The position numbers were made by a program, and so were the translations under genes. DNA of 64,000 nucleotides from a phage. Below are positions 3,238 through 40,567 of this stretch, piece by piece. Position 1 is the first letter of the stretch. Each line of letters begins with the position of its first letter. The stretch lies in the sequence record PX915678.1, one strand, 5' to 3'. A model generated the notes under the pieces. It was not told where the DNA came from, did not search any database, and saw only the letters and a list, made by a program, of their open reading frames with translations.

Positions 3238-6378
<3,141 letters not shown>

Positions 6379-6406
6379 TATTAAAGCATATTAAAGAGGA
6401 TTAAAA

Positions 6407-8386
6407 ATGACTTTATTATCTCCGGGCATTGAGCTCAAAGAAACTACGGTTCAAAGCACCGTGGTTAATAACTCTACTGGTACAGCAGCTTTGGCCGGTA
6501 AATTCCAGTGGGGTCCTGCTTTTCAAATTAAACAGGTTACAAATGAAGTAGATTTAGTTAATACTTTTGGTCAACCTACAGCTGAAACTGCTGACTATTT
6601 TATGTCTGCAATGAATTTCTTACAATACGGAAATGATTTGCGAGTTGTGCGTGCTGTCGATAGAGATACCGCTAAAAACTCATCTCCGATTGCCGGTAAT
6701 ATTGAATACACTATTTCTACCCCAGGTAGTAACTACGCGGTTGGAGATAAAATCACGGTTAAGTATGTTTCAGAAGATGTTGAAACAGAATGTAAAGTTA
6801 CCGAAGTAGATGCTGATGGAAAAATTAAGAAAATTAATATTCCTACCGCAAAAATTATCGCTAAAGCGAAAGAAGTAGGCGAATATCCAGCATTAGGTTC
6901 TAACTGGACCGCGGAAATTTCTTCGTCTTCCTCTGGTTTAGCTGCAGTAATAACTCTTGGAAAAATTATTACTGATTCTGGTATTTTATTAGCTGAAATT
7001 GAAAATGCTGAAGCTGCTATGACAGCTGTTGACTTTCAAGCAAATCTCGAAAAATATGGAATTCCAGGAGTAGTAGCTCTTTATCCAGGCGAGTTGGGCG
7101 ATAAAATCGAAATTGAAATCGTATCTAAAGCTGACTACGCAAAAGGTGCTTCTGCATTACTTCCAATTTATCCAGGTGGCGGAACACGCGCATCTACTGC
7201 CAAAGCAGTGTTTGGATATGGACCACAAACTGATTCACAATACGCTATTATAGTTCGTCGCAATGATGCTATTGTTCAAAGCGTTGTTCTTTCAACGAAG
7301 CGTGGTGAAAAAGATATTTACGATAGTAACATCTATATTGATGACTTTTTCGCAAAAGGTGGTTCAGAATATATTTTCGCAACTGCACAAAACTGGCCAG
7401 AAGGCTTCTCTGGAATTTTAACTCTGTCTGGCGGATTATCATCAAATGCTGAAGTAACAGCAGGAGATTTGATGGAAGCTTGGGACTTCTTTGCTGACCG
7501 TGAATCTGTTGATGTTCAGTTGTTTATTGCGGGTTCTTGTGCCGGTGAATCTTTAGAAACAGCATCTACTGTCCAAAAACACGTCGTTTCAATTGGGGAT
7601 GCTCGCCAAGATTGCTTAGTACTGTGCTCGCCACCGCGTGAAACTGTAGTTGGAATTCCTGTAACTCGTGCTGTTGATAACTTAGTCAATTGGAGAACTG
7701 CAGCAGGTTCATACACTGATAATAACTTTAATATCAGTTCAACCTACGCAGCAATTGATGGTAACTACAAGTATCAGTATGACAAATATAATGATGTAAA
7801 TCGTTGGGTTCCATTAGCAGCTGATATTGCTGGTTTATGCGCGAGAACCGATAACGTTTCTCAGACTTGGATGTCTCCAGCTGGTTATAATCGCGGCCAG
7901 ATTTTGAACGTTATTAAACTTGCTATTGAAACTCGCCAGGCGCAGCGCGATCGTTTATACCAAGAAGCTATCAACCCAGTAACTGGTACAGGTGGTGATG
8001 GTTACGTATTGTATGGTGATAAAACAGCTACTTCTGTTCCTTCTCCATTTGATCGTATTAACGTTCGTCGTCTGTTTAATATGTTGAAAACGAATATCGG
8101 ACGTAGTTCAAAATATCGTTTGTTCGAATTAAACAACGCGTTTACTCGTTCATCGTTCCGCACAGAAACTTCCCAGTACTTGCAGGGAATTAAAGCTCTC
8201 GGTGGAATTTATGAATATCGTGTAGTTTGCGATACAACAAATAACACTCCGTCAGTAATTGATAGAAATGAGTTTGTTGCAACATTCTACATCCAACCGG
8301 CTAGAAGCATTAACTACATTACCTTAAACTTCGTAGCAACTGCTACTGGTGCAGATTTCGATGAGTTAACTGGTCTTGCAGGTTAA
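6407..8386 (+). CDS. 18: contractile tail sheath protein
   Basis: 659-aa ORF (T4 gp18 is 659 aa); TATAAATA late promoter about 30 nt upstream. Confidence 0.95.
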   Translation: MTLLSPGIELKETTVQSTVVNNSTGTAALAGKFQWGPAFQIKQVTNEVDLVNTFGQPTAETADYFMSAMNFLQYGNDLRVVRAVDRDTAKNSSPIAGNIEYTISTPGSNYAVGDKITVKYVSEDVETECKVTEVDADGKIKKINIPTAKIIAKAKEVGEYPALGSNWTAEISSSSSGLAAVITLGKIITDSGILLAEIENAEAAMTAVDFQANLEKYGIPGVVALYPGELGDKIEIEIVSKADYAKGASALLPIYPGGGTRASTAKAVFGYGPQTDSQYAIIVRRNDAIVQSVVLSTKRGEKDIYDSNIYIDDFFAKGGSEYIFATAQNWPEGFSGILTLSGGLSSNAEVTAGDLMEAWDFFADRESVDVQLFIAGSCAGESLETASTVQKHVVSIGDARQDCLVLCSPPRETVVGIPVTRAVDNLVNWRTAAGSYTDNNFNISSTYAAIDGNYKYQYDKYNDVNRWVPLAADIAGLCARTDNVSQTWMSPAGYNRGQILNVIKLAIETRQAQRDRLYQEAINPVTGTGGDGYVLYGDKTATSVPSPFDRINVRRLFNMLKTNIGRSSKYRLFELNNAFTRSSFRTETSQYLQGIKALGGIYEYRVVCDTTNNTPSVIDRNEFVATFYIQPARSINYITLNFVATATGADFDELTGLAG

Positions 8387-8402
8387 TACGGTGCATTCTA
8401 AA

Positions 8403-8420
8403 GGCCTGTTTCGGCAGGCC
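8403..8420 (+). terminator. GC stem-loop after gene 18
   Basis: GGCCTG-TTTCGG-CAGGCC hairpin; no clear T-run, so it may be a stabiliser rather than a terminator. Confidence 0.4.
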
Positions 8421-8421
8421 A

Positions 8422-8429
8422 TATAAATA
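8422..8429 (+). promoter_or_regulatory. late promoter (TATAAATA), upstream of gene 19
   Basis: Exact TATAAATA in the 18-19 intergenic region. Confidence 0.55.
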
Positions 8430-8480
8430 CACTATATCCTTAATTCTTTAATTCTATATGCCCTAGGTTAAACATAGGGA

Positions 8481-8488
8481 TATAAATA
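8481..8488 (+). promoter_or_regulatory. late promoter (TATAAATA) for gene 19
   Basis: Exact TATAAATA about 15 nt before the ATG. Confidence 0.7.
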
Positions 8489-8502
8489 CTACAGAGGCTA
8501 AT

Positions 8503-8994
8503 ATGTTTGTAGATGATGTAACACGAGCGTTTGAATCTGGTGATTTTGCTCGACCTAACTTATTCCAAGTAGAAATTTCTTATCTTGGACAAAATTTTAC
8601 GTTTCAATGCAAAGCCACTGCTTTACCAGCTGGTATTGTAGAAAAAATTCCAGTCGGATTTATGAACCGTAAAATTAACGTAGCAGGCGATCGTACATTC
8701 GATGACTGGACTGTTACAGTAATGAACGATGAGGCACATGATGCTCGCCAGAAGTTTGTTGATTGGCAAAGCATTGCTGCTGGGCAAGGGAACGAAATTA
8801 CTGGTGGAAAACCAGCAGAGTATAAAAAGAGCGCTGTTGTTCGCCAATACGCTCGTGATGCTAAAACTGTAACAAAAGAAGTCGAAATTAAAGGCCTGTG
8901 GCCTACTAACGTGGGTGAACTTCAATTAGATTGGGATTCAAACAATGAAATCCAAACCTTTGAAGTAACTCTTGCTCTCGATTATTGGGAATAA
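8503..8994 (+). CDS. 19: tail tube protein
   Basis: 163-aa ORF after gene 18, preceded by two TATAAATA boxes; T4 gp19 size. Confidence 0.95.
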   Translation: MFVDDVTRAFESGDFARPNLFQVEISYLGQNFTFQCKATALPAGIVEKIPVGFMNRKINVAGDRTFDDWTVTVMNDEAHDARQKFVDWQSIAAGQGNEITGGKPAEYKKSAVVRQYARDAKTVTKEVEIKGLWPTNVGELQLDWDSNNEIQTFEVTLALDYWE

Positions 8995-9026
8995 AATGAA
9001 TGGGGAGAAATCCCCATCCTGCTTAA

Positions 9027-10651
<1,625 letters not shown>

Positions 10652-31997: not shown

Positions 31998-34055
31998 TTA
32001 TCCTTGAACGAACTTGTAAGGCATGTTTGTAATATCTATGCAAGACGCAATAATTCCAAGAGATGATTCTACTTTTTGTTTAACATTTGATGAAACAAAT
32101 GATGCAAAGTCAACTCTGTCTTCTATTTCAATATCACCTGTCATTGCAACTACTTCACCAGTTTCCATTAGACGATCACCGTCATAAATTACTGATTCGG
32201 TGAGTTCTTCCGTAGTCATAACTTCAGCTTGAATAAGCTTGTTGTTAGTTTTAGCTGTTCCATCATTGTAAGATGCATCGGTTATTTTATTAACTTTGAC
32301 CATTAATCCACGTGGTAAAATGACTTCCATTTCATTTGAAGGCGCTAAACTTCCACCTGGTAAAACAACGTTGACTTTATCAGCCCCAGTAATAACCCAT
32401 CCAATTCCAACTAAATTATCGCTAGAATTAACAAGTCCTTCATCGTTTTTATCGATAGAAATGTTTAGACGCTTTTCGTCTGGTAAAACACCCACAGCTG
32501 AATCAGTCATCCAAGTACCAAAAATGTTTGGATATAATGATGTTGATACAAAATTTCTAAAATAAAAAACTCGATTTTTTACCAATGCTTCATATATTGA
32601 AGGTAACATTCGCTGTGAACGATATAAAGTAATACCTTTTGGCAGTCGATCACCATTTTTAAAGGCTGAATCTAAATTATCGATGGCTTGTTCTATTTCT
32701 GGTGCTGTTAAAATACTTGTACGTTCATCTGGATTATATAATCCCAAAAGAGCATTATTCATGTCTACATATCCTGAACCTACGTATTCACGAATTCCAC
32801 GTTTTTGTGCCGGTGTGTATTTAGACGGATCTTTATTTTCGACTATAGAATGCAATGACCATCCAACGGTAAGAGCATATCCACGTAATTCTCTTCGAAT
32901 AATCTTTGTTTTTATTGCATTCCAAGAATTTTGTACTAACTCATTCGCAGCATCTTGATTTAAATGCGAATGCTTGTTAATATTTCTTTCTAACCAAGCA
33001 CCTTTATATTTTTCTAAAGTATCATCGACTATAGAAGCAATAGTTTCTAAAGTTTTTATTGAAGTAATAGATTCTTTTCGTAATCTTTCTAAAGCTTTAT
33101 TTTTTATTTCTGCATTAACATCAGATTCTTTATCTTCAGGAATTATAGAAGCTTCTCTGAATGCCATTCCAGCTGTAACACTATTAAGAGCATTCTCTAA
33201 TGCAAATCCTGAAGTAGAAATAACAGTTAATTCATTAGCATCAGAAATTAAAGGCGCGTCAGCGGGTTTATTTAATTCTGCTGCTGAAGCCTCAAATTTT
33301 TGAAACATTGGTGTTTCAAATCTGGAAGATTCTAACGATTGACTTTGTGCAATTGCTCTACGGGAAATTTTAACTTTAACGATTACAGCTTGGTCAGAAC
33401 GTTTATCGTTTTCTTGTGCAATAGATGCTGCAATTGCCTCATTTTTAGTTACTTGAGCTCCGGTATCTTTATTGATATAAACATCACCGACTTTCGATTC
33501 AACTTTAGTAAAGAGCTCGGTACTAATTTCCGGAACTCCTGGAATGTCTTCTAGTGATACATTTTTGCGATGTATAAGAATATATGCATACTTTTTATCG
33601 TAATCCCAGAGTTCCTTAAGAAGGACGTATCTGCCACCTGAACGACTACGGATAAGTCTATCAGCAATAAGTTGAATTTGACGAGCTTGACCAGCAGTTT
33701 TAGACTTAAGAATACGGAGCATGCAGGCATCAATTTTATACTGACGCATCGTCTGCATCGCAACAGTAAAAACTGAATTGATGTAATTAATTGGGCTTGG
33801 ACCGAGACCTTTTAATTTAGCAATTGAACCTTTGGCAGTTAATGTAAAAGGAACAATATGCATCATTTTATCGCCCATCTTTAAATCGCGATTAGTATCA
33901 CCTCCAGATGTATAGGTACATAAACGAAAGCCTGGCTGTTCAATTGCGTCATCAACATGAACTGAAAAAATTTGTGGTATTTTCTTCTTTGGATTTAAGT
34001 TTGTAATCGGAAGAGTAGTATCTTCGTCAAATAATTCTGTAATGAGTTCCATCAT
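31998..34055 (-). CDS. alt: ADP-ribosyltransferase Alt (packaged internal head protein)
   Basis: 685-aa ORF recalled as very close to T4 Alt; ART motifs YRSQ...FVSTSLYPNIF...EMEVILPRG; minus-strand TATAAATA upstream. True start may be the second Met (34052). Confidence 0.93.
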   Translation of the reverse strand: MMELITELFDEDTTLPITNLNPKKKIPQIFSVHVDDAIEQPGFRLCTYTSGGDTNRDLKMGDKMMHIVPFTLTAKGSIAKLKGLGPSPINYINSVFTVAMQTMRQYKIDACMLRILKSKTAGQARQIQLIADRLIRSRSGGRYVLLKELWDYDKKYAYILIHRKNVSLEDIPGVPEISTELFTKVESKVGDVYINKDTGAQVTKNEAIAASIAQENDKRSDQAVIVKVKISRRAIAQSQSLESSRFETPMFQKFEASAAELNKPADAPLISDANELTVISTSGFALENALNSVTAGMAFREASIIPEDKESDVNAEIKNKALERLRKESITSIKTLETIASIVDDTLEKYKGAWLERNINKHSHLNQDAANELVQNSWNAIKTKIIRRELRGYALTVGWSLHSIVENKDPSKYTPAQKRGIREYVGSGYVDMNNALLGLYNPDERTSILTAPEIEQAIDNLDSAFKNGDRLPKGITLYRSQRMLPSIYEALVKNRVFYFRNFVSTSLYPNIFGTWMTDSAVGVLPDEKRLNISIDKNDEGLVNSSDNLVGIGWVITGADKVNVVLPGGSLAPSNEMEVILPRGLMVKVNKITDASYNDGTAKTNNKLIQAEVMTTEELTESVIYDGDRLMETGEVVAMTGDIEIEDRVDFASFVSSNVKQKVESSLGIIASCIDITNMPYKFVQG

Positions 34056-34075
34056 ATCCTCTCTAGTGTTTATTC

Positions 34076-34083
34076 TATTTATA
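34076..34083 (-). promoter_or_regulatory. late promoter (TATAAATA, minus strand) for alt
   Basis: Plus-strand TATTTATA about 21 nt upstream of the alt ATG. Confidence 0.65.
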
Positions 34084-34090
34084 AAATTAA

Positions 34091-34104
34091 AGGCCCGAAG
34101 GCCT
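34091..34104. terminator. GC hairpin between alt and the 62-aa ORF
   Basis: AGGCC-CGAA-GGCCT stem-loop flanked by AT-rich sequence. Confidence 0.45.
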
Positions 34105-34293
34105 TTAATAATCTATTGGTAAGAGAGTACGATATATTTCAAACTTTGGACCTTTTTCATAGGTATCAAATGTTTCTGTGAATTTATTATAAGCATATGC
34201 ATCTATAAATTCAATCATAATTTGTGATACAGAAGTAGAAACATCTCCGCCTTCTTTTTGAGCAACGACAATTGTTTCTAAGTAAGCTTTCAT
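34105..34293 (-). CDS. hypothetical small protein
   Basis: 62-aa ORF whose stop lies just before the alt late promoter; start overlaps the ligase stop. Confidence 0.55.
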   Translation of the reverse strand: MKAYLETIVVAQKEGGDVSTSVSQIMIEFIDAYAYNKFTETFDTYEKGPKFEIYRTLLPIDY

Positions 34294-35750
34294 AGACCAG
34301 TTACCTCATGAAAATCACCAAATACATCCTCGAATGTATTAGCTTTAGTTTTATCTTCACGTAAACGAATCGCAATCGGAAGAAATAATTTAACGTAATC
34401 AGTGCGGCCGTCAGATTTTAACCAACCATTGCATTCACATTCTAGAATTTTTCCAATATAATAATTTTGGTTTTCCATAATGCGAGTACGGTCAAGTTCA
34501 TGCGATTTTACACCGGCTTTATCTTTTAAGCCTGAACCAGCATTTACTTTAATTTTTCCACACTCTGATTCAAGAATAAATCCACCCGCTTTAGTTGGGT
34601 CTTTACGGTGAGGATAAATTCCTACAATTTTTAAATCAACATCAATTACTTCTTTAAATTTATAGAGATTTTTTGAACGAGAATTTTCCCATAATCCATC
34701 AATATTTTTGAGAATAATACCTTCAAGACCTTGGTCAATATACTTTTTATAAATTACCTTAGCTTCATCTAGGTTATTTACTACCTGGTTTTCAATTAAA
34801 ATTACTTTATCATATCCTGATGTCATTTGTTCTAGTTTAGAAAAACGTACATCATATTTTAAACGAAACGCCGGAAGACCGTATATTTCTACCAATGGGA
34901 CATAATCCCAGACCTGAAACTTCATGCATTTGGCTTCTTTTTCTGAAATAGTTCCCTTTAAAGATTTATTGGCGATTCCATTAGAAGCAGTACGTGATTC
35001 AGCTACTTCGGCAAACTCTTTGACTTTACTATTTTCAGGAGTATCAAAAAGAAAATCTAGGCCTTCTGGCTCCTTTTCAACTTGCTCATGGTATACCAAT
35101 TCGCCATCGATTAAAACACCTTCTGGATGAATCTGGCGGGCTTCAGCGGTCATTTTGATTAACTCTTCCTTAAGAAGATCTAATCCTAGATATTCATTAC
35201 CAGCTCGTGATAAAAGACGAACATCATCTAATTCATCGCCTCGGACTTCAGCAAAACACCGAGCTCCATCTGCTTTTAACTGTGCAAAGGCTGGAAATTT
35301 GATATTCTTACTAATGCCTTTTTCATCATAAGAACTTGCCAGCATTTGAGGTTGTTCAGGAATTAAACCTGGCCAAACTTTATTTGCAATAGATACTGAA
35401 GCACCGCATTCAAGATCTCGCATCATCACTCGACGCAAAACTTCAACATCATCCTTTTTACCGTCGGTGATATATCCAGTTAATTCCTCAATTGCCGCAT
35501 TTCCAGTCAATTTCCGAGTAGCTAACGTGAATTCAATGAAGTCAAGCATATCGGTAATAGTCAGCATTCCAAAACTCTGGGTAGCAATACCAGGTTTAGG
35601 CCATTTCTTGATATAATACTGTAACCCACGAGAATAAGTCAGACGATATACTCGTTTAAGCAATTCATTATCTTTATTCTTTTCAAGAATTGCTTGCTTC
35701 TGCTTAGTTGATCCAATAGATGCTATTTCATTCAGAATTTTAAGAATCAT
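34290..35750 (-). CDS. 30: ATP-dependent DNA ligase
   Basis: 486-aa ORF recalled as near-identical to T4 DNA ligase (MILKILNEIASIGSTKQKQAILEKNKDNELLKRVYRL...); adenylation lysine motif KADGAR. Confidence 0.97.
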   Translation of the reverse strand: MILKILNEIASIGSTKQKQAILEKNKDNELLKRVYRLTYSRGLQYYIKKWPKPGIATQSFGMLTITDMLDFIEFTLATRKLTGNAAIEELTGYITDGKKDDVEVLRRVMMRDLECGASVSIANKVWPGLIPEQPQMLASSYDEKGISKNIKFPAFAQLKADGARCFAEVRGDELDDVRLLSRAGNEYLGLDLLKEELIKMTAEARQIHPEGVLIDGELVYHEQVEKEPEGLDFLFDTPENSKVKEFAEVAESRTASNGIANKSLKGTISEKEAKCMKFQVWDYVPLVEIYGLPAFRLKYDVRFSKLEQMTSGYDKVILIENQVVNNLDEAKVIYKKYIDQGLEGIILKNIDGLWENSRSKNLYKFKEVIDVDLKIVGIYPHRKDPTKAGGFILESECGKIKVNAGSGLKDKAGVKSHELDRTRIMENQNYYIGKILECECNGWLKSDGRTDYVKLFLPIAIRLREDKTKANTFEDVFGDFHEVTGL

Positions 35751-36016
35751 TGCTCATCCTTCAAGGTTTGGTTTACAGCTCTATTATAAATCAATTCATC
35801 ATTAAGCTCAGGCAAAGACTTATGATATGTAGTTCTAACTTTATTTCCTTGCATCCAATGCTTGACGTAAATGAAACCTTGCTCTACGCATTTTTTAAAA
35901 ATTCGTTCGTCTTTTTGAGCTCGGAATTCTGGATTGCATCTAAAGAATTGATTTACGTGACCGTAATCACGTGTAGTATTACCTTCATTTTCATAAATAG
36001 TGTGAACGACAAACAT
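35747..36016 (-). CDS. hypothetical protein (30.x island)
   Basis: 89-aa ORF, ATG start, 4-nt overlap with neighbours. Confidence 0.6.
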   Translation of the reverse strand: MFVVHTIYENEGNTTRDYGHVNQFFRCNPEFRAQKDERIFKKCVEQGFIYVKHWMQGNKVRTTYHKSLPELNDELIYNRAVNQTLKDEQ

Positions 36017-36846
36017 TAGAATGCTCCTTGAAAAATATTATCACCACTAGTAGGTCTATTATACAAATACTCTATGCCACCAGGTTTAATATAGTTCCAT
36101 GTCTGAAATGGATGTGTCTGATATGGATGATTATAAGGATTAAATCCAGGCGTTCTCCAGGTAGTGTTCCAAGGAAAAGAATCGTTTTTAACCATCTTCT
36201 CAATTAAATCTTTTATAGCTTTTTCACTATCAAAACTTTCTTTATTTTCCTTCGGTGAAAAAAGCTTATTTTCTACATCATTCCATGTATAAACTCGCTG
36301 AGCAGTTTTTGGAATATTGTCACGCTCTCCTCGAGCCATCCAATAAACAGGAACATTTAATATTTCACTCGCGTGGTCGCAGTGGTGAGCGAGATCGTCA
36401 ATATAACAAATTACGTTATATTTCTCTTTTGCCTTTTTAAACAACTCTTCTTTTGAAGAATCATGACCACACATCATTACTTCTGAGAATGCACCAGGAA
36501 AAAGAGCATTCAAATTAAATTGACGATTCAGCAGAGCGTCAATAGAATCACCCAATGCTGTAACAGCTACAAAATTATAATCTTCTTTTAGTTTGTTAAT
36601 TACACATAGAGCATCTTTATATGGGGATAAGTAACGAATAAAATCTGATCGATTATATTTTTCAATTAACTTGACACCGAGTTCTTCATCACAATTAAAG
36701 AGTTTACCTGGAGAAATAAATTTCTCATCTTGGATCATTTTTAAAATATGTTCTAACGGAAGATTATATTTCTGAGCAAAATAAGGAAGACCTGATTGCC
36801 AGCTTAAACATACTCCATCAATATCAGTTAAAATAGTAGGCTTCAT
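36016..36846 (-). CDS. HAD-superfamily hydrolase-like protein (putative nucleotidase/phosphatase) with C-terminal extension
   Basis: 276-aa ORF; N-terminal HAD motif I (ILTDIDGVCL) and a downstream acidic motif (VICYIDDLAHH); roughly 100 C-terminal residues lack HAD features. Confidence 0.65.
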   Translation of the reverse strand: MKPTILTDIDGVCLSWQSGLPYFAQKYNLPLEHILKMIQDEKFISPGKLFNCDEELGVKLIEKYNRSDFIRYLSPYKDALCVINKLKEDYNFVAVTALGDSIDALLNRQFNLNALFPGAFSEVMMCGHDSSKEELFKKAKEKYNVICYIDDLAHHCDHASEILNVPVYWMARGERDNIPKTAQRVYTWNDVENKLFSPKENKESFDSEKAIKDLIEKMVKNDSFPWNTTWRTPGFNPYNHPYQTHPFQTWNYIKPGGIEYLYNRPTSGDNIFQGAF

Positions 36847-37301
36847 AGAGAGTCTCTTAATAGGTTTAACACATCAATAAATTCAGCTTCGGTTAGTATT
36901 GTATCATCTTTTGTTAGACCACTAGCCATGCTGTGCTTCAAAACTTTTCCTTTCGAGGCTTGTAATGCATCGCGAAAGCCCTTGTTTTGGAACGCTGCTT
37001 CAAAATATGCATTTGTGTATAATTCTTTCCACGCCGGGGAATATCTTGAAAACGGAGTTCCAAGCCAGAAGAGGGTCCCACGGTCCTGAGCTCTAGCATA
37101 AGACCTTCCAGCTTGTTGGGCGGCAAGCCCGGATAACCCAAATATACGACGTTGTTGTTCAACATTTTTCACCTTACACCCTTGGAGGAATCCTTCTAGA
37201 CCTCCAAATTGAATACCATCCATAACGAAAGGCCATTGGGCAAAATTACTTAATGCGCATGATGGCCATTTAAAATTGCTTCTTATCTCTAGCTCAGACA
37301 T
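36843..37301 (-). CDS. NADAR/YbiA-like (DUF1768-type) protein
   Basis: Track ORF starts at TTG (37307); ATG at 37301. The block LSNFAQWPFVMDGIQFGGLEGFLQGCK resembles the YbiA/NADAR signature (SNFA.WP...DG......E..FQ..K), from memory. Confidence 0.6.
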   Translation of the reverse strand: MSELEIRSNFKWPSCALSNFAQWPFVMDGIQFGGLEGFLQGCKVKNVEQQRRIFGLSGLAAQQAGRSYARAQDRGTLFWLGTPFSRYSPAWKELYTNAYFEAAFQNKGFRDALQASKGKVLKHSMASGLTKDDTILTEAEFIDVLNLLRDSL

Positions 37302-37500
37302 TTTCAATACTTATAATTTCAACATCAGCCCAATGACCATAGCAAGGAAGACGAAATTCAACTGGCCAGTTAGGGTCCTTTTCTAATATAATAGACTGAA
37401 CTTGTGGCTCTTCATATTCATCGGTATACGGACCTTTATACGTTACTTTATATGTGACTTTAATGTATTGAATTCCAAAAATCTTATTAATTATATTCAT
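37294..37500 (-). CDS. hypothetical protein
   Basis: 68-aa ORF, ATG start, in a head-to-tail overlapping array. Confidence 0.5.
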   Translation of the reverse strand: MNIINKIFGIQYIKVTYKVTYKGPYTDEYEEPQVQSIILEKDPNWPVEFRLPCYGHWADVEIISIENV

Positions 37501-37694
37501 ACTAATTCCTTTAATCCGTAAATAGGAGATAATTCATCACCCATACGAAGGTCTTCATTTCCATCTACCCAGGAAACAATATAAGCTTCTTTTATTTGAA
37601 TACCACTCCATTTAAATGGAGGTAGAACCTTAGAAATTAATCCAGGTATACCAACTCCCTTTAATTCAACAGTTTGACCTAAAAAGAATTTCAT
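37497..37694 (-). CDS. hypothetical protein
   Basis: 65-aa ORF, 4-nt overlaps both sides. Confidence 0.5.
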   Translation of the reverse strand: MKFFLGQTVELKGVGIPGLISKVLPPFKWSGIQIKEAYIVSWVDGNEDLRMGDELSPIYGLKELV

Positions 37695-37981
37695 TAGAAC
37701 CTCATCTGAAAACCGTGCGATTTAACATTACCGCCGCCAATATCAGAAATATTAATTTCACGCGCAATTGAAGGGTCAATGTCAATTTCACGATTGAGTT
37801 TAGTGATAGCTAAAGTATCGCGGCCATTTACAGTACGGAACTCTAAAGGACATACTACATTAACATAGTTTTTAATCGATTCACTGGTAGGTTGCAAATG
37901 AGCAGGAAGGTCTTTAGGCGCCTTTGAGAAAACTACTTCACAGAAATTTTTGCGGGTGTCAAAATAAGTAGTCATAAACAT
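37694..37981 (-). CDS. hypothetical protein
   Basis: 95-aa ORF; GC hairpin just beyond its start. Confidence 0.55.
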   Translation of the reverse strand: MFMTTYFDTRKNFCEVVFSKAPKDLPAHLQPTSESIKNYVNVVCPLEFRTVNGRDTLAITKLNREIDIDPSIAREINISDIGGGNVKSHGFQMRF

Positions 37982-38022
37982 AGTATTTTCCTCAATGAGG
38001 GGCCGAAGCCCCTCATTTTATT

Positions 38023-38388
38023 TTAAATATCAAATTCGTTAAGAACTACATCAAAGATTGCTTCAAGATGCTCAGGTTTAGCTCTGTTACTCAAAATATG
38101 ACGAATCCAAGTTTTAACCAGAAGCTTACGATTAACGCCATTCCAGCAAGGATGAGTCCCTAAATCGCGTTGACGAAAATCATCATCCAAAGCGATTTTG
38201 AAGTTGGAACCTTCCATTGTGATTGAAACTGTGATGCCATTTTCAAATCGCATATAAACGTAGTTAGGAGTCATATACTGTTCAATTTCGCATACTGATC
38301 CATTTTGATGTTTCCAAAGGCAAATAGTATCAATAGAACCTGCAATACCATTAGAAACATATTTACGTTCAAAGTTGATGTAGTTCAT
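38023..38388 (-). CDS. hypothetical protein
   Basis: Track ORF starts at TTG (38400); ATG at 38388 preceded by GGAG gives 121 aa. Confidence 0.55.
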   Translation of the reverse strand: MNYINFERKYVSNGIAGSIDTICLWKHQNGSVCEIEQYMTPNYVYMRFENGITVSITMEGSNFKIALDDDFRQRDLGTHPCWNGVNRKLLVKTWIRHILSNRAKPEHLEAIFDVVLNEFDI

Positions 38389-38455
38389 TTTATTCTCCAA
38401 GATGTTTAATTGCGGTACAGGTATATAATATCATATCCTGTACCAAAGTAAACAA

Positions 38456-38788
38456 TTATTTTACTACTTTCCAGTGCTGCATGTCAAGTTTACCAACTTT
38501 TTTCATCTTCTCAATTAAGCGTTCAGCACGTTGGCGAGCTGTAACATAATACCATTCACCCAATTCATTTTGTTCAATTTTTCCAACGATTACTGTATTC
38601 AATTCATAAATCCAACCAGTAAAGAAATTATGAACTTGAATTGTAAAGGTGAAATCTGTTCCCATACCTTCTGTTGTTTCTACTTCAATAATATCACCTT
38701 CAACTGCCATTAAGAACCACATAGTTTCATCATATTTACCATTGAAGCATTTAGTTTTAACTGTAGCGTTCAGATTAATCGTTTTCAT
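38456..38788 (-). CDS. hypothetical protein
   Basis: 110-aa ORF; early-promoter-like GTTTACA-N17-TGnTAGTAT upstream. Confidence 0.55.
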   Translation of the reverse strand: MKTINLNATVKTKCFNGKYDETMWFLMAVEGDIIEVETTEGMGTDFTFTIQVHNFFTGWIYELNTVIVGKIEQNELGEWYYVTARQRAERLIEKMKKVGKLDMQHWKVVK

Positions 38789-38815
38789 TTTATTCTCCTT
38801 TGTTTGTGTAAGATA

Positions 38816-38844
38816 ATACTATCACAAAGGAACCATACTGTAAA
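38816..38844 (-). promoter_or_regulatory. early promoter upstream of the 110-aa ORF
   Basis: Minus strand GTTTACA - 17 nt - TGaTAGTAT. Confidence 0.45.
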
Positions 38845-38865
38845 CAACTTTGTGCAATCTTTGGA

Positions 38866-38893
38866 AAATAAAAAAGGACTCCCGAAGGAGTCC
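38866..38893 (-). terminator. terminator after the small basic protein gene
   Basis: GGACTCC-CGAA-GGAGTCC hairpin followed on the minus strand by a T-run. Confidence 0.65.
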
Positions 38894-38898
38894 TCAAC

Positions 38899-39075
38899 TT
38901 ATGCTTTCTGCTTACCAAAACGAGAAGCATCATCTCGAAGAACCGCACGTGCTCGGCGCATGATCTTCTCAACAGTTTGATTGATACGAGAGTTCGACCC
39001 ACGCTTGTAACCAGCGCGTTTAGAATCACCAACTTTCTTTTCAACTGCTTTCTTTGCTTTAGCTTGTTTTGCCAT
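38899..39075 (-). CDS. small highly basic protein
   Basis: 58 aa from the ATG at 39075 (MAKQAKAKKAVEKKVGDSKRAGYKRG...); the track's longer ORF extends to a non-ATG start; hairpin plus T-run terminator downstream. Confidence 0.55.
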   Translation of the reverse strand: MAKQAKAKKAVEKKVGDSKRAGYKRGSNSRINQTVEKIMRRARAVLRDDASRFGKQKA

Positions 39076-39117
39076 TATAAATTCTCTTTTAAATGAAAAT
39101 GCAGGACTTATTGGCAT

Positions 39118-39470
39118 TGCCTGCGCAAGCCCTCAAGGGGAACATAGGTTTTGTATATTTACCGACAGGATAACCATAAACCCGTCATCATACTTATAAC
39201 TCTTATCTGTTGCACACCGTTAGCTTAAAGGTTCCGGGTTCGATTTCTCGAGGATAAGATATATACTGATGGATATATAGGCCTTGAGGCGTACTCCCGA
39301 TTAGCCATCACCTCGGGGTAGCATGCACTTGCCGCTATAAGAATAACATTCAAGAGGTACACCGTAAAACTGCCGGGGTCTTAAAACTATAATGATTCGC
39401 AAATCATTAATCAGACAGTTCGACGGCTCCTCGATTTTAGCTCACACTAAGGCAGTGAATCTCCAATAAA
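39118..39470. other. ORF-free region of about 350 bp between rIII and the small basic protein gene
   Basis: Stops in all six frames, no ORF of 60 aa or more, in an otherwise almost gap-free genome; contains complementary GC-rich segments. Confidence 0.6.
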
Positions 39471-39719
39471 TTACTTCAGTGTTACCACAAAGTGACGAAC
39501 TGCTTTTCGTGCAGCAGAAGCCAAAGGCTTAGCATATTTAAGTTCATCTTTTTCCTGAAGCTCAGCAGCTAATGCAGTTTGAGCAGGATTCAGATGTTTG
39601 AAATAACGCAGGATTTCAAGAGCTTCGGCTTCAACATCAATAGATGCGCCATAGTTTTCGTGACCATTATTCCATGCGTTTCGTTGCAGTTCAAGAGCGT
39701 GTTGTAATTGTTTAATCAT
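39471..39719 (-). CDS. rIII: rIII lysis-inhibition accessory protein
   Basis: 82-aa ORF (T4 RIII is 82 aa) directly downstream of gene 31. Confidence 0.88.
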   Translation of the reverse strand: MIKQLQHALELQRNAWNNGHENYGASIDVEAEALEILRYFKHLNPAQTALAAELQEKDELKYAKPLASAARKAVRHFVVTLK

Positions 39720-39866
39720 TTAAAAATTCTCGTTAGAGATTAAAACTCGGTAGTCACGTTCTTCTGAATTTCATCTTCTTTCGACAGATCTCTCAGTTGT
39801 AGACTACCACATAGAATTGTTCGGTTAACTTATTATTCCGACACCCAATTCATATTATTATTTATA

Positions 39867-40202
39867 TCACTTATAAAGACACGGAATAGCTTTATAGTGA
39901 CAGGTAACGAATTTTTGTTTAATTTCTTTTGGCTGCTTAAGACCCAGAGCTACAAAAGGATGTGGAACGTTTCGAATTTGACCAACTGGAAGAGAAGTCA
40001 AATCACCAACTTCACAGAAACCTTCAGGAACATCAGGACCAACAGAGTGAACTACACACAGTTCAGGAACTTCACCTTGAACACGTTTACCGATAATAAG
40101 TCCTGATTCTGTAACTTCTTCATCACCGGCTTGTGCAGGTTCAGAAACTAAAATAACATATTCACCGACAGCACGAATTGGTAGCTGTTGTACTTCAGAC
40201 AT
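39867..40202 (-). CDS. 31: co-chaperonin gp31 (GroES-like)
   Basis: [39 protein letters not shown]... recalled as T4 gp31; 111 aa from the second ATG. Confidence 0.95.
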
Positions 40203-40258
40203 CATTTTTCCTTTTTGTTAACAGATGAATTAATAATAACAAATAATTCTTAAAGCAT

Positions 40259-40567
40259 TTATTTACCAATAAATTGAAGCAAATGCTCAACTTTCATACC
40301 ATTAACGGAAATCAATTTGTTAATAGAAAAACCTCGCCACTCGCCAAGCTCAACATCAAATACTGGAATCATATCAGTAGATTCTTTCCGGGCAGATTCA
40401 GTCAATTTACCAGTTTGCATGGTTGGCATAAAATCGGCATCACGAGTACCTTTCATAGTACGAATAGTACCATCAGACTTTTCAAAAACTACGTTTGAAA
40501 TACCCATAGACAATTTAGTTTTCAAAATTTCACGAATTGCTACTTTTTGTTCAGTCGTCAGTTTCAT
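40259..40567 (-). CDS. hypothetical protein (T4 31.1 position)
   Basis: 102-aa ORF between 31 and cd. Confidence 0.65.
   Translation of the reverse strand: MKLTTEQKVAIREILKTKLSMGISNVVFEKSDGTIRTMKGTRDADFMPTMQTGKLTESARKESTDMIPVFDVELGEWRGFSINKLISVNGMKVEHLLQFIGK

Follow-up and report, generated by a model that had tools for sequence, protein, structure and literature searches.

The island of overlapping genes between DNA ligase and rIII in phage record PX915678.1 is the T4 30.1–30.9 block

What are the tightly packed genes lying between DNA ligase and rIII, and which functions do they serve? In the phage DNA analysed here (64,000 nucleotides of record PX915678.1, referred to as the window), a first-pass annotation had described positions 35747–39117 as an accessory island of nine tightly overlapping small ORFs of the 30.x type, likely devoted to host interaction or anti-defence. 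We found that this island is the gene-for-gene orthologue of the already catalogued T4 30.1–30.9 block, and the earlier recognition of a 30.x region was correct. As a whole, we explain the locus as a dispensable cassette comprising AdfN, a 30.2 phosphatase and condition-specific small proteins, a reading to which we assign a probability of about 0.9. The block contains the following ORFs:

35747..36016, minus strand: 30.1 orthologue, 89 aa, DUF3045 (96.6% identical to T4 30.1; Pfam PF11243, 209 bits)
36016..36846, minus strand: 30.2 orthologue, 276 aa (97.1% identical to T4 30.2)
36843..37301, minus strand: 30.3, adfN orthologue, 152 aa, predicted NADAR DNA ADP-ribosylglycohydrolase against DarTG1 (97.4% identical to T4 30.3)
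36938..37165, minus strand: 30.3', 75 aa, DUF2883, out of frame within 30.3, annotated in T4 (allele comparison)
37294..37500, minus strand: 30.4 orthologue, 68 aa, acidic (92.6% identical to T4 30.4; phrog_2042)
37497..37694, minus strand: 30.5 orthologue, 65 aa (100% identical to T4 30.5)
37694..37981, minus strand: 30.6 orthologue, 95 aa (97.9% identical to T4 30.6; phrog_2153)
38023..38388, minus strand: 30.7 orthologue, 121 aa, PF06919 (98.3% identical to T4 30.7)
38456..38788, minus strand: 30.8 orthologue, 110 aa, PF06019 (98.2% identical to T4 30.8)
38899..39075, minus strand: 30.9 orthologue, 58 aa, pI 11.4 (100% identical to T4 30.9)

Specifically, blastp comparison with T4 showed 92.6–100% amino acid identity over the full length of ten ORFs (the nine plus 30.3') and of both flanking genes, and the gene order between gene 30 (DNA ligase) and rIII is that of the T4 annotation. 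The T4 block (NC_000866, 127205–130540) shares with the window the nine genes plus 30.3', their order and strand, and overlaps such as that of 8 nt between 30.4 and 30.3; inside the block the two phages differ by point substitutions only. In addition, 780 phage records match the block, 475 of them covering at least 80% of it. The genes of the island are not new, and the finding is already known.

All nine ORFs are present at the positions first assigned to them, on the minus strand, and the seven small ones, counted from the T4-equivalent ATG starts, measure 89, 68, 65, 95, 121, 110 and 58 aa, in agreement with the 58–121 aa range given before. The description of all nine as small does not hold, since 30.2 reaches 276 aa. 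The mechanical ORF list overextends 30.3, 30.7 and 30.9 upstream to TTG or ATG codons devoid of a Shine-Dalgarno sequence, as for the ATG at 39117 upstream of 30.9, while the real starts are ATG 37301 for 30.3, ATG 38388 for 30.7 and ATG 39075 for 30.9. The seven small ORFs had also been said to lack recognisable motifs: this does not apply to 30.1, 30.7 and 30.8, which belong to the Pfam families DUF3045, PF06919 and PF06019, and every ORF falls in a PHROG family, yet all these families are without assigned function.

The tenth annotated ORF, 30.3', is nested within 30.3 and behaves differently from the others. Its identity is only 58–64% where 30.3 is 86% identical, its start codon is lost in three of 11 alleles (L004, L012 and L028) and a fourth (L021) carries an internal stop. 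Third codon positions of 30.3 are equally variable in both parts of the gene, at 45 sites within the overlap and at 44 beyond it, and no sign of purifying selection on 30.3' was seen among the 11 alleles. On this allele comparison, 30.3' is probably not a gene. The same could be asked of the remaining small ORFs, which might be open frames that arose by chance and persist only in annotations, as 30.3' probably does. We consider this very improbable: the nine main ORFs are conserved as proteins, with 38–91% identity in divergent genera, each has its own PHROG family, homologues of 30.8 down to 34% identity keep the conserved columns, and every main ORF either is preceded by a Shine-Dalgarno sequence or starts by coupling.

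The way in which these genes are joined bears on their expression. From 30.9 down to gene 30 there are nine junctions, and the earlier statement that most are 4-nt overlaps is overstated, as only three (30.5/30.4, 30.3/30.2 and 30.1/30, the last joining the stop of 30.1 to the ligase start) are 4-nt ATGA overlaps. Two further junctions are 1-nt TAATG overlaps and one is the 8-nt overlap, while at the other three the genes lie 110, 67 and 41 nt apart, and in these gaps we found promoter-like or terminator-like signals:

37996..38015, minus strand: GC-rich hairpin, UUCG loop, in the 30.7/30.6 gap (read from the sequence)
38425..38452, minus strand: early-promoter-like site upstream of 30.7, TTTACT, 16-nt spacer, TATTAT (consensus match only)
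38816..38844, minus strand: early-promoter-like site upstream of 30.8, TTTACA, 17-nt spacer, TAGTAT, with TG (scan and sequence)
38874..38895, minus strand: intrinsic-terminator-like hairpin, UUCG loop and T-run, directly 3' of the 30.9 stop (scan and sequence)

The hairpin at 37996..38015, a palindrome that the scan flagged on the plus strand, has no T-run on the gene strand and adjoins the Shine-Dalgarno sequence of 30.6. Neither promoter-like sites (24 versus 21.8±4.2) nor terminator-like sites (4 versus 3.4±2.0) were enriched over shuffled sequence; therefore, the transcription units are drawn from position and T4 precedent only. The early-promoter-like sites before 30.8 and 30.7 suggest an early transcription of the block. 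We infer four putative expression units, in which 30.9, 30.8 and 30.7 would each stand apart and 30.6–30.1 would be expressed together, with borders at the promoter-like sites before 30.8 and 30.7, at the terminator-like hairpin after 30.9 and at the GC-rich hairpin after 30.7. Translational coupling would link the genes from 30.6 through 30.1 among themselves and with ligase, in a cassette that precedes the essential DNA ligase gene and is read in the ligase direction. This arrangement recalls the PeSL cassettes of T4-type hyperplastic regions (PMC2839356, PMC4122927), by layout and not by the published PeSL consensus: in the 30.9/30.8 spacer an early-promoter-like site comes after a terminator-like stem-loop, a second such site lies in the 30.8/30.7 spacer, and L006, LZ9 and JS10 are without the 30.7–30.8 pair that these spacers flank. 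The 30.x locus is not mentioned in the two PeSL papers.

The sole unexpected feature at the locus is a structured RNA, which lies 81 nt beyond 35747–39117 and hence outside the island coordinates, always in the order rIII, RNA, 30.9:

39198..39339, minus strand: conserved 142-nt structured RNA element (covariation, covariance model)
39076..39197, minus strand: 30.9 leader with several hairpins (alignments read by eye)

The element occurs in 404 phage records, mostly at 90–99% identity, and is absent from T4, T2 and RB69; its covariance model recovered a single copy in the window, at 173 bits, and gave no hit in T4, L002 or RB69. The rIII–30.9 spacer measures 395 nt in the window and 244 nt in T4, a difference due to an indel: the window has a 152-nt segment containing the structured RNA. 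The structure consists of 41 pairs, with 99.0% of cells paired on the gene strand compared to 95.4% on the opposite strand. Compensatory change was observed at 14 pairs, a kissing loop included, against 3.5±1.5 in shuffles (none of 500 reaching 14) and 1–3 in slid controls. Searches of Rfam 15 gave no match at E≤1 for this region (scan of 34000–40300) nor, over 39080–39400, even at E≤10, and neither tRNA nor tmRNA was found. In the 30.9 leader, the stem sequence of the last hairpin differs by lineage and is followed by a U-rich tract which, judged by eye, is able to base-pair with the Shine-Dalgarno sequence of 30.9; RNAalifold on the gappy leader alignment returned no consensus. As in 5' leaders of the riboswitch or attenuator type, a highly conserved domain of several helices, with a kissing loop as tertiary contact, is followed by a stem, a U-tract and then the next gene's Shine-Dalgarno sequence. 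Unlike these leaders, the element belongs to no Rfam family and 30.9 is expressed without it in T4; a small RNA acting on its own is an equally likely reading.

Returning to the block itself, its gene content differs between genera, consistent with the plastic ("hyperplastic") region proposed at the outset. The Mosigvirus RB69 lacks 30.5, while both 30.7 and 30.8 are missing from Dhakavirus JS10, phage LZ9 and locus L006. Loci L007–L011 show no match to 30.1, 30.3, 30.4 and 30.6, and other ORFs occupy those slots. In file 7 of the supplement to a transposon screen, T4 30.1–30.9 are all classed as "Non-essential" and genes 30 and 31 as "Essential" (10.1101/2025.11.20.689424). The first-pass annotation had set its host-interaction reading against a one-to-one conservation with T4 30.1–30.9 combined with known housekeeping roles: the one-to-one correspondence is what we found, while housekeeping roles are at odds with nine genes listed as non-essential. 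In conclusion, the block is a dispensable accessory cassette.

Within this cassette, the function of 30.3 is the best defined. T4 30.3 is AdfN (anti-DarT factor NADAR), experimentally found to neutralise DarTG1, with support from genetics, biochemistry and the E36A and K43A mutants (PMC11825919). In addition, T4 30.3 is reported as conditionally essential, transposon insertions being lost only when DarTG1 is present (bioRxiv 10.1101/2025.11.20.689424). In T4, the protein strips the ADP-ribose that the DarT1 toxin adds to guanines of phage DNA, so that replication goes on in DarTG1-carrying hosts. The label "NADAR-like" is borne out by a match to Pfam PF08010 (Phage_30_3; 232 bits, the cut-off being 36) and by the published work on the T4 orthologue. 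Both proteins are 152 aa long, and the window allele carries the substitutions R11K, V83T, I105F and I126M with respect to T4 AdfN (PMC11825919). Numbering from the T4 start, it keeps E36, K43 and the single His (in VLKHSM), the phage-type catalytic His being located on the last strand of NADAR (PMC11125620). It is full length, with an intact C-terminal helix and an end identical to that of T4 (LNLLRDSL), whereas this helix is missing from the RB69 allele (137 aa as annotated), a loss which lowers activity (PMC11825919). From the 97.4% identity and the retained catalytic residues, the window allele should act as T4 AdfN. A phage-encoded partner has been proposed, since AdfN is fully effective only in T-even infection (PMC11825919).

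The adjacent 30.2 had been called HAD-like, and both motifs and structure uphold this. D8, D10, G11 and K132 are invariant among 42 homologues, in which T96, D150 and D151 are nearly invariant (at least 90% conserved), and these residues correspond to the HAD motif set (I, DxD(G/x)(T/V); II, S/T; III, K; IV, DD). In the AF2 model, whose pLDDT averages 84.5 and exceeds 90 for residues 1–190, residues 1 to about 195 make up a phosphatase domain of HAD fold bearing a helical C1 cap, followed by a low-confidence, variable C-terminal tail of about 80 residues. Foldseek returned 107 PDB matches at E≤0.001 with probability 1.00; the best 50 of these are all HAD-superfamily proteins or enzymes engineered on a HAD scaffold, and the lowest rmsd among the matches listed belongs to 5'(3')-deoxyribonucleotidases (2jao, 2i7d, 4yih, 4mum, 3bwv). 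The best match of the 30.2 profile to the PDB, 2jao, is marginal (E=0.019). No match to Pfam (even at E≤10) or NCBIfam was obtained, so the superfamily placement rests on structure and motifs. With the mouse and human cdN enzymes (2jao, 2i7d), 30.2 shares the Rossmann-like core, the DxD/T/K/DD motifs and the helical C1 cap, at 4.3–5.3 Å rmsd over about 200–220 columns; it differs in sequence (13–19% identity only, with no Pfam HAD/NT5C match) and in its extra tail. The tie to the NT5C family consists of this structural proximity and of the source-given names of two homologues. The fold and motifs obtained here make 30.2 a C1-capped phosphatase of the HAD superfamily, with an Asp nucleophile. 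Its substrate would be small and phosphorylated, most likely a (deoxy)nucleotide. The substrate cannot be read from the fold alone.

A metagenomic protein (P0015) carries a 30.2-type HAD domain fused to a 30.1 domain, on one short contig of 1378 nt. Such a natural fusion, together with the 4-nt and 1-nt overlaps that chain 30.3 to 30.2, 30.1 and ligase, would fit a role of the promoter-distal 30.2–30.1 part, coupled to DNA ligase, in nucleotide or DNA-end metabolism rather than in host conflict, for example as a nucleotidase trimming the dNMP pool or clearing phosphorylated products such as those left after AdfN. The proximity to deoxyribonucleotidases, the conservation of 30.2, wider than that of any other gene in the block, and the proposed partner of AdfN point the same way. 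We regard this as unlikely, however, given that the C1 cap speaks against a DNA-end substrate, that 30.2 is among the genes listed as non-essential and that the fusion is known from that single contig. Moreover, 30.2 occurs in lineages without 30.3 and is therefore no obligate AdfN partner.

The dispensable cassette with AdfN, the 30.2 phosphatase and condition-specific small proteins thus remains our preferred reading, and its last component is the seven small proteins. No Pfam match beyond DUF-type families and none in NCBIfam was found for them, nor any match to PADLOC models at E≤1, and nothing better than E=0.4 in the PDB; 30.4 and 30.6 gave no match to any of these four collections. The 30.5 protein is among the more widely kept ones, with 41–68% identity in the divergent loci L007–L012. 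The homologues found for 30.7 form only 18 clusters, with no conservation of the cysteines, and its AF2 model (pLDDT 67.8; six strands and two helices) matched no PDB fold at E≤0.001. An exhaustive HMMER search for 30.8 gave 21 representative clusters; almost all of these homologues stand alone, at about 105–121 aa, and a profile of 15 homologues found nothing in the PDB.

Could the entire block then be an anti-defence island, with most or all of 30.1 and 30.4–30.9 inhibiting specific bacterial immune systems? One member, 30.3, is a proven counter-defence gene, all nine are listed as non-essential on K-12, gene content varies even between close relatives (as in the loss of 30.7 and 30.8), and 30.7, 30.8 and 30.9 form separate units amid their own intergenic signals. 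Nevertheless, we find this generalisation doubtful: the small ORFs have no homology to known inhibitors or defence components (PADLOC, PDB), 30.2 resembles a metabolic enzyme, and 30.2, 30.5, 30.7 and 30.9, which are retained across genera, are more stable than typical anti-defence cargo. The main-text passages of the HIDEN-SEQ preprint covered here name no 30.x hit except 30.3, and the anti-DarTG2 hit of that work, tk.4, is located elsewhere in the genome. As for the anti-defence function first suggested, it stands for one gene, 30.3 (AdfN versus DarTG1), whose role is already published, so that nothing in it is new; the position between injected ART genes and host-takeover genes, from which it had been argued, does not count as evidence for it. 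Conserved and restricted to phages, the seven small proteins are dispensable in the laboratory host, and by analogy they most likely serve condition-specific host interaction, counter-defence included.

On the minus strand, positions 35747-39117 hold an unbroken run of ORFs between the DNA ligase gene (34290-35750) and rIII (39471-39719). A megablast search with this region matched 780 phage records, the majority being T4-type phages of Escherichia, Shigella or Yersinia; 475 records cover at least 80% of the region, and the best match is 97.9% identical. A protein-by-protein comparison with the T4 reference annotation (NC_000866) assigned each ORF of the island to a T4 gene as its one-to-one orthologue.

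Amino-acid identity of the island proteins to T4
30.1: 96.6%
30.2: 97.1%
30.3: 97.4%
30.3': 93.3%
30.4: 92.6%
30.5: 100%
30.6: 97.9%
30.7: 98.3%
30.8: 98.2%
30.9: 100%

The flanking proteins match as well (ligase 98.2%, alt.1 98.4% and rIII 100% identical to T4), and therefore the window derives from a phage closely related to T4, and the island can be identified as the T4 30.x block, a catalogued set of genes that is already known. The first-pass annotation, which had described an accessory island of nine tightly overlapping small ORFs, was essentially correct as an observation, apart from minor overstatements. It had also weighed the possibility that all the ORFs correspond to T4 30.1-30.9 and have housekeeping roles: the correspondence is indeed one-to-one, but the housekeeping part does not hold, since in T4 grown on E. 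coli K-12 all nine genes are scored 'Non-essential', insertions being present at 95-100% of their sites; T4 genes 30 and 31 are scored 'Essential' (10.1101/2025.11.20.689424 supplement).

Counted from the T4-equivalent ATG starts, which are all either coupled or preceded by a Shine-Dalgarno sequence, the seven small proteins measure 89, 68, 65, 95, 121, 110 and 58 aa. The gene junctions, said before to be mostly 4-nt overlaps, turned out to be three ATGA overlaps, two 1-nt TAATG overlaps, one 8-nt overlap and three gaps of 110, 67 and 41 nt. Signals can be recognised in these gaps: a UUCG-loop hairpin with a T-run lies immediately 3' of 30.9, early-promoter-like sites of the GTTTAC type precede 30.8 and 30.7, and a GC-rich hairpin separates 30.7 from 30.6. 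As promoter- and terminator-like sites are no more frequent in the region than in shuffled sequence, it is their position that suggests, rather than proves, that they act as such.

The one understood gene of the block, published in 2024-2025, is 30.3. Renamed adfN (anti-DarT factor NADAR), it encodes in T4 a NADAR-fold DNA ADP-ribosylglycohydrolase, which removes the ADP-ribose put on phage DNA by DarT1, the toxin of the bacterial defence system DarTG1 (Johannesman et al., Nat Commun 2025, PMC11825919). According to the same study, T4 resistance to DarTG1 requires adfN, the mutants E36A and K43A are impaired, and host-expressed adfN suffices to rescue RB69, whose own allele is weak and lacks the C-terminal helix. 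AdfN did not detoxify DarT1 outside T-even infection (PMC11825919), so that a phage partner of AdfN is suspected. T4 gp30.3 has also been assayed in vitro, in work that takes a catalytic His in the last strand as the defining feature of phage NADARs (PMC11125620), and a 2025 preprint reports that 30.3 transposon insertions are lost only with DarTG1 present (10.1101/2025.11.20.689424). The window protein (152 aa; 232 bits against Pfam PF08010) keeps E36, K43, the sole His and the C-terminus. Judged by its sequence, it is an intact AdfN allele, and the phage is predicted to resist DarTG1. The proposal that the island serves host interaction or anti-defence is thus supported in part, solely through previously published work.

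Within 30.3 lies a further annotated ORF:

36938-37165, minus strand: 30.3', a T4-annotated internal, out-of-frame ORF (Pfam DUF2883)

Among eleven distinct 30.3 alleles, 30.3' is much the faster to diverge, being 58-64% identical where its host gene 30.3 is 86% identical; the 30.3' start codon is lost in three alleles and an internal stop is gained in one. Moreover, synonymous-site variability of 30.3 is equal inside (45 sites) and outside (44 sites) the overlap. With no sign of purifying selection on 30.3' among these alleles, it is probably a spurious annotation turned Pfam family, and probably to be dropped from annotations.

The 30.2 product matched no Pfam or NCBIfam model, even at lax thresholds. 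A search for its homologues yielded 100 clusters, from T4-type phages that infect many hosts. Numerous homologues are only about 200 aa long, which makes the C-terminal third an optional part. Across 42 aligned homologues, no change is seen at D8, D10, G11 and K132 and hardly any at T96, D150 and D151; together these residues make up the four HAD motifs. The profile gave as top PDB match the 5'(3')-deoxyribonucleotidase 2jao (E=0.019). The AF2 model, with pLDDT above 90 over residues 1-190 and a poor tail, had 107 Foldseek matches in the PDB at E<=0.001; the 50 listed are all HAD-fold proteins, and among these 50 the lowest rmsd belongs to cytosolic/mitochondrial deoxyribonucleotidases. Motifs, model and structural matches together bear out the earlier 'HAD-like' label, and we regard 30.2 with some confidence as a HAD-fold phosphatase. 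The helices inserted between motifs I and II form a C1 cap, which in HAD enzymes points to a small-molecule rather than a polynucleotide substrate. The tail (36016-36270, about 80 C-terminal residues) is Pro/aromatic-rich, of low confidence and missing from many homologues; distant homologues share a near-terminal motif, G-I-E-Y-L-x-x-(Q/R)-P-T, which could be a docking peptide. In the window, 30.1 and 30.2 (35747-36846) overlap by 1 nt, and in the metagenomic protein P0015, encoded on one 1378-nt contig, a 30.2-type HAD domain is fused directly to a 30.1-type DUF3045 domain. This fusion is a weak hint that the two proteins work together, or may be spurious, created by assembly or a frameshift.

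For 30.1 and 30.4-30.9, Pfam returned DUF-type or eponymous families only, every PHROG family carries the label 'unknown function', neither PADLOC nor NCBIfam gave a match, and phmmer against the PDB gave none better than E=0.4. For 30.7, with only 18 homologue clusters, a shallow alignment of 12 sequences yielded a mediocre model (pLDDT 67.8) that had no Foldseek match in the PDB at E<=0.001; a zinc site was rejected, the cysteines not being conserved. For 30.8, an exhaustive HMMER search of 1.84 billion representatives found 21 clusters, essentially all stand-alone and with no informative fusions, and the profile of its homologues did not match the PDB. The 30.9 protein is strongly basic (pI 11.4). 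Literature searches on gp30.1/2/6/7/8/9 and the numeric gene names found nothing relevant, and the main text of the CRISPRi-ART paper does not mention the 30.x genes. By default, we infer a condition-specific role in host interaction for these proteins. The block is a reasonable, although unproven, place to seek more counter-defence genes, as well as the T-even factor on which AdfN apparently depends. Short ENA metagenome proteins (P0102 and P0103) join Pfam 30.3 with 30.7, and SH3_3 with 30.8; these may have arisen by deletion and fusion within the block, or may be artefacts of assembly.

Among related loci, the scaffold of the block is conserved and some of its slots vary. Specifically, 30.7 and 30.8 are missing in L006 (a close T4 relative), in phage LZ9 (L014) and in Dhakavirus JS10 (L017), where 30.9 is directly followed by 30.6 (7394-7749 in L006); one phage with this deletion has a ligase 98% identical to that of the window. 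The deletion end points fall in spacers that bear promoter-like or hairpin signals in the window. RB69 is without 30.5 and has a truncated 30.3. At greater distance, loci with a ligase about 72% identical retain 30.2, 30.5, 30.7, 30.9 and, in most cases, 30.8; 30.1, 30.3, 30.4 and 30.6 are unmatched there, their slots being occupied by unrelated ORFs. In L012 (IMGVR_UViG_2706795401, 6000-10000), identity to the window is high for 30.7 (91%), rIII (89%) and 30.3 (86%) and low for the ligase (69%), 30.1 (45%), 30.4 (43%) and 30.8 (38%), a mosaic that suggests recombination within the block. Such slots fit the published hyperplastic regions shuffled at promoter/stem-loop cassettes, in a paper that does not discuss this locus (PMC4122927).

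Just outside the island, the rIII-30.9 spacer measures 395 nt in the window versus 244 nt in T4, and the difference is one 152-nt segment. The spacer contains the following features:

39198-39339, minus strand: structured RNA of 142 nt between rIII and 30.9, 81 nt beyond the island, identified by covariation (the element)
39076-39197, minus strand: leader, common to T4

The 152-nt segment occurs in 404 phage records, 158 of them from Klebsiella phages, mostly at 90-99% identity. The element is carried by Tequatrovirus, Dhakavirus, Jiaodavirus and Enterobacter phages; in the last two groups the match is confined to spacer positions 137-273 and the surroundings are unalignable. Across genera its nucleotides are 85-99% conserved where the flanking proteins are only 51-77% identical. 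The order rIII, element, 30.9 holds in every locus with enough flank, over a range of 63-100% identity for rIII and 51-100% for 30.9. A free-roaming mobile element was rejected on the constant locus and orientation and the single copy per genome. In five Jiaodavirus-like loci (L016, L033, L035, L036 and L066), 30.9 and the T4-type protein share 88-97% identity, and rIII is only 63-76% identical; 30.9 itself is unusually conserved in these lineages.

Eighteen distinct copies of the element were aligned (A4), most of them fetched with a 17-mer that is thereby invariant by construction. RNAalifold proposed 39 pairs, 12 with compensatory changes. Three weak inner pairs were then swapped for a kissing interaction between the loops GAUGG and CCAUC, which covary to UAUGG/CCAUA and AAUGA/UCAUU, giving a final structure of 41 pairs. 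Five helices, the kissing interaction included, are supported by covariation; two others never vary and thus lack such support. Both sides are changed in 14 pairs, compared to 3.5+-1.5 in shuffles (0/500 reach 14) and 1-3 in slid controls, counts that are not probabilities because the aligned copies are related. On the opposite strand, 27 G-U cells would become A-C mismatches (99.0% versus 95.4% of cells paired), indicating that the RNA reads in the gene sense. The folding energy is unremarkable (z about 0 on both strands), so that it is covariation only that argues for an RNA.

In the 64-kb window, the covariance model detects a single copy (173 bits); it detects none in T4, RB69, L002 (a locus with a 99% identical ligase) or the other loci without the segment; T2 lacks the element too. 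Scans of metagenomes and bacterial genomes recovered it on T4-like contigs only. A wider family was rejected: 50 metagenome and 10 bacterial-genome pattern matches outside such contigs are attributable to chance, the covariance model recognising just one of them (L098, 16.3 bits, E=0.21). Rfam gave no match even at E<=10, no tRNA or tmRNA was detected within the element, and no description of it surfaced in text searches, although one may exist elsewhere. A tRNA remnant was considered on account of a T-arm-like GGTTCGATT, and dismissed: this belongs to the antisense strand, ARAGORN makes no prediction, and similarity to T4 rnaC, rnaD and tRNAs does not exceed 10-12-mers. As for a host mimic, blastn against 5,426 E. 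coli genomes gave no match with the threshold relaxed to E<=10, and the resemblance to tmRNA PK1 proved unsupported. A small protein gene does not account for the variation, which is explained by compensatory pair changes and not by codon-wobble patterns.

In the L004 and L012 spacers, a third allele occupies the indel site, namely an unrelated insert of about 45 nt with a good -10 hexamer (TACTAT) 17 nt past the conserved TTTTAC. The spot is thus a three-allele swap point, with a promoter-like -10 inside the variable segment.

Read by eye, the leader holds a hairpin whose stem differs entirely between lineages while its pairing is kept (GCAGG/CCUGC, GAACUGG/CCAGUUC, GAGAGG/CCUCUC and GGGAGC/GCUCCC), and after the last leader hairpin comes a U-rich tract that can base-pair with the Shine-Dalgarno sequence of 30.9. 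RNAalifold returned no consensus for the gappy alignment of the 30.9-proximal leader. This hairpin and tract before 30.9 look like an attenuator or a Shine-Dalgarno-sequestering arrangement. Most likely, the element forms a structured domain at the 5' end of an early transcript, with controlled read-through into 30.9; alternatively, it may be a stand-alone small RNA ending at the leader hairpin. We give slightly less than an even chance (roughly 0.45) to the reading that the element belongs to an undescribed functional class of structured RNA in enterobacterial T4-type phages, either a riboswitch-like or attenuator leader that senses a ligand or factor and gates read-through into 30.9, or a stand-alone small RNA acting on the host.

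In conclusion, the RNA beside the island would matter more than the island itself and is the sole item worth follow-up, for which natural alleles with and without the element allow a direct test by comparison. Its covariation-supported fold is kept across several Tevenvirinae genera and missing from the model phages; loss from T4, T2 and RB69 would explain its escape from study. If our reading is true, the element would add a new regulatory or effector RNA to one of the best-studied groups of viruses.
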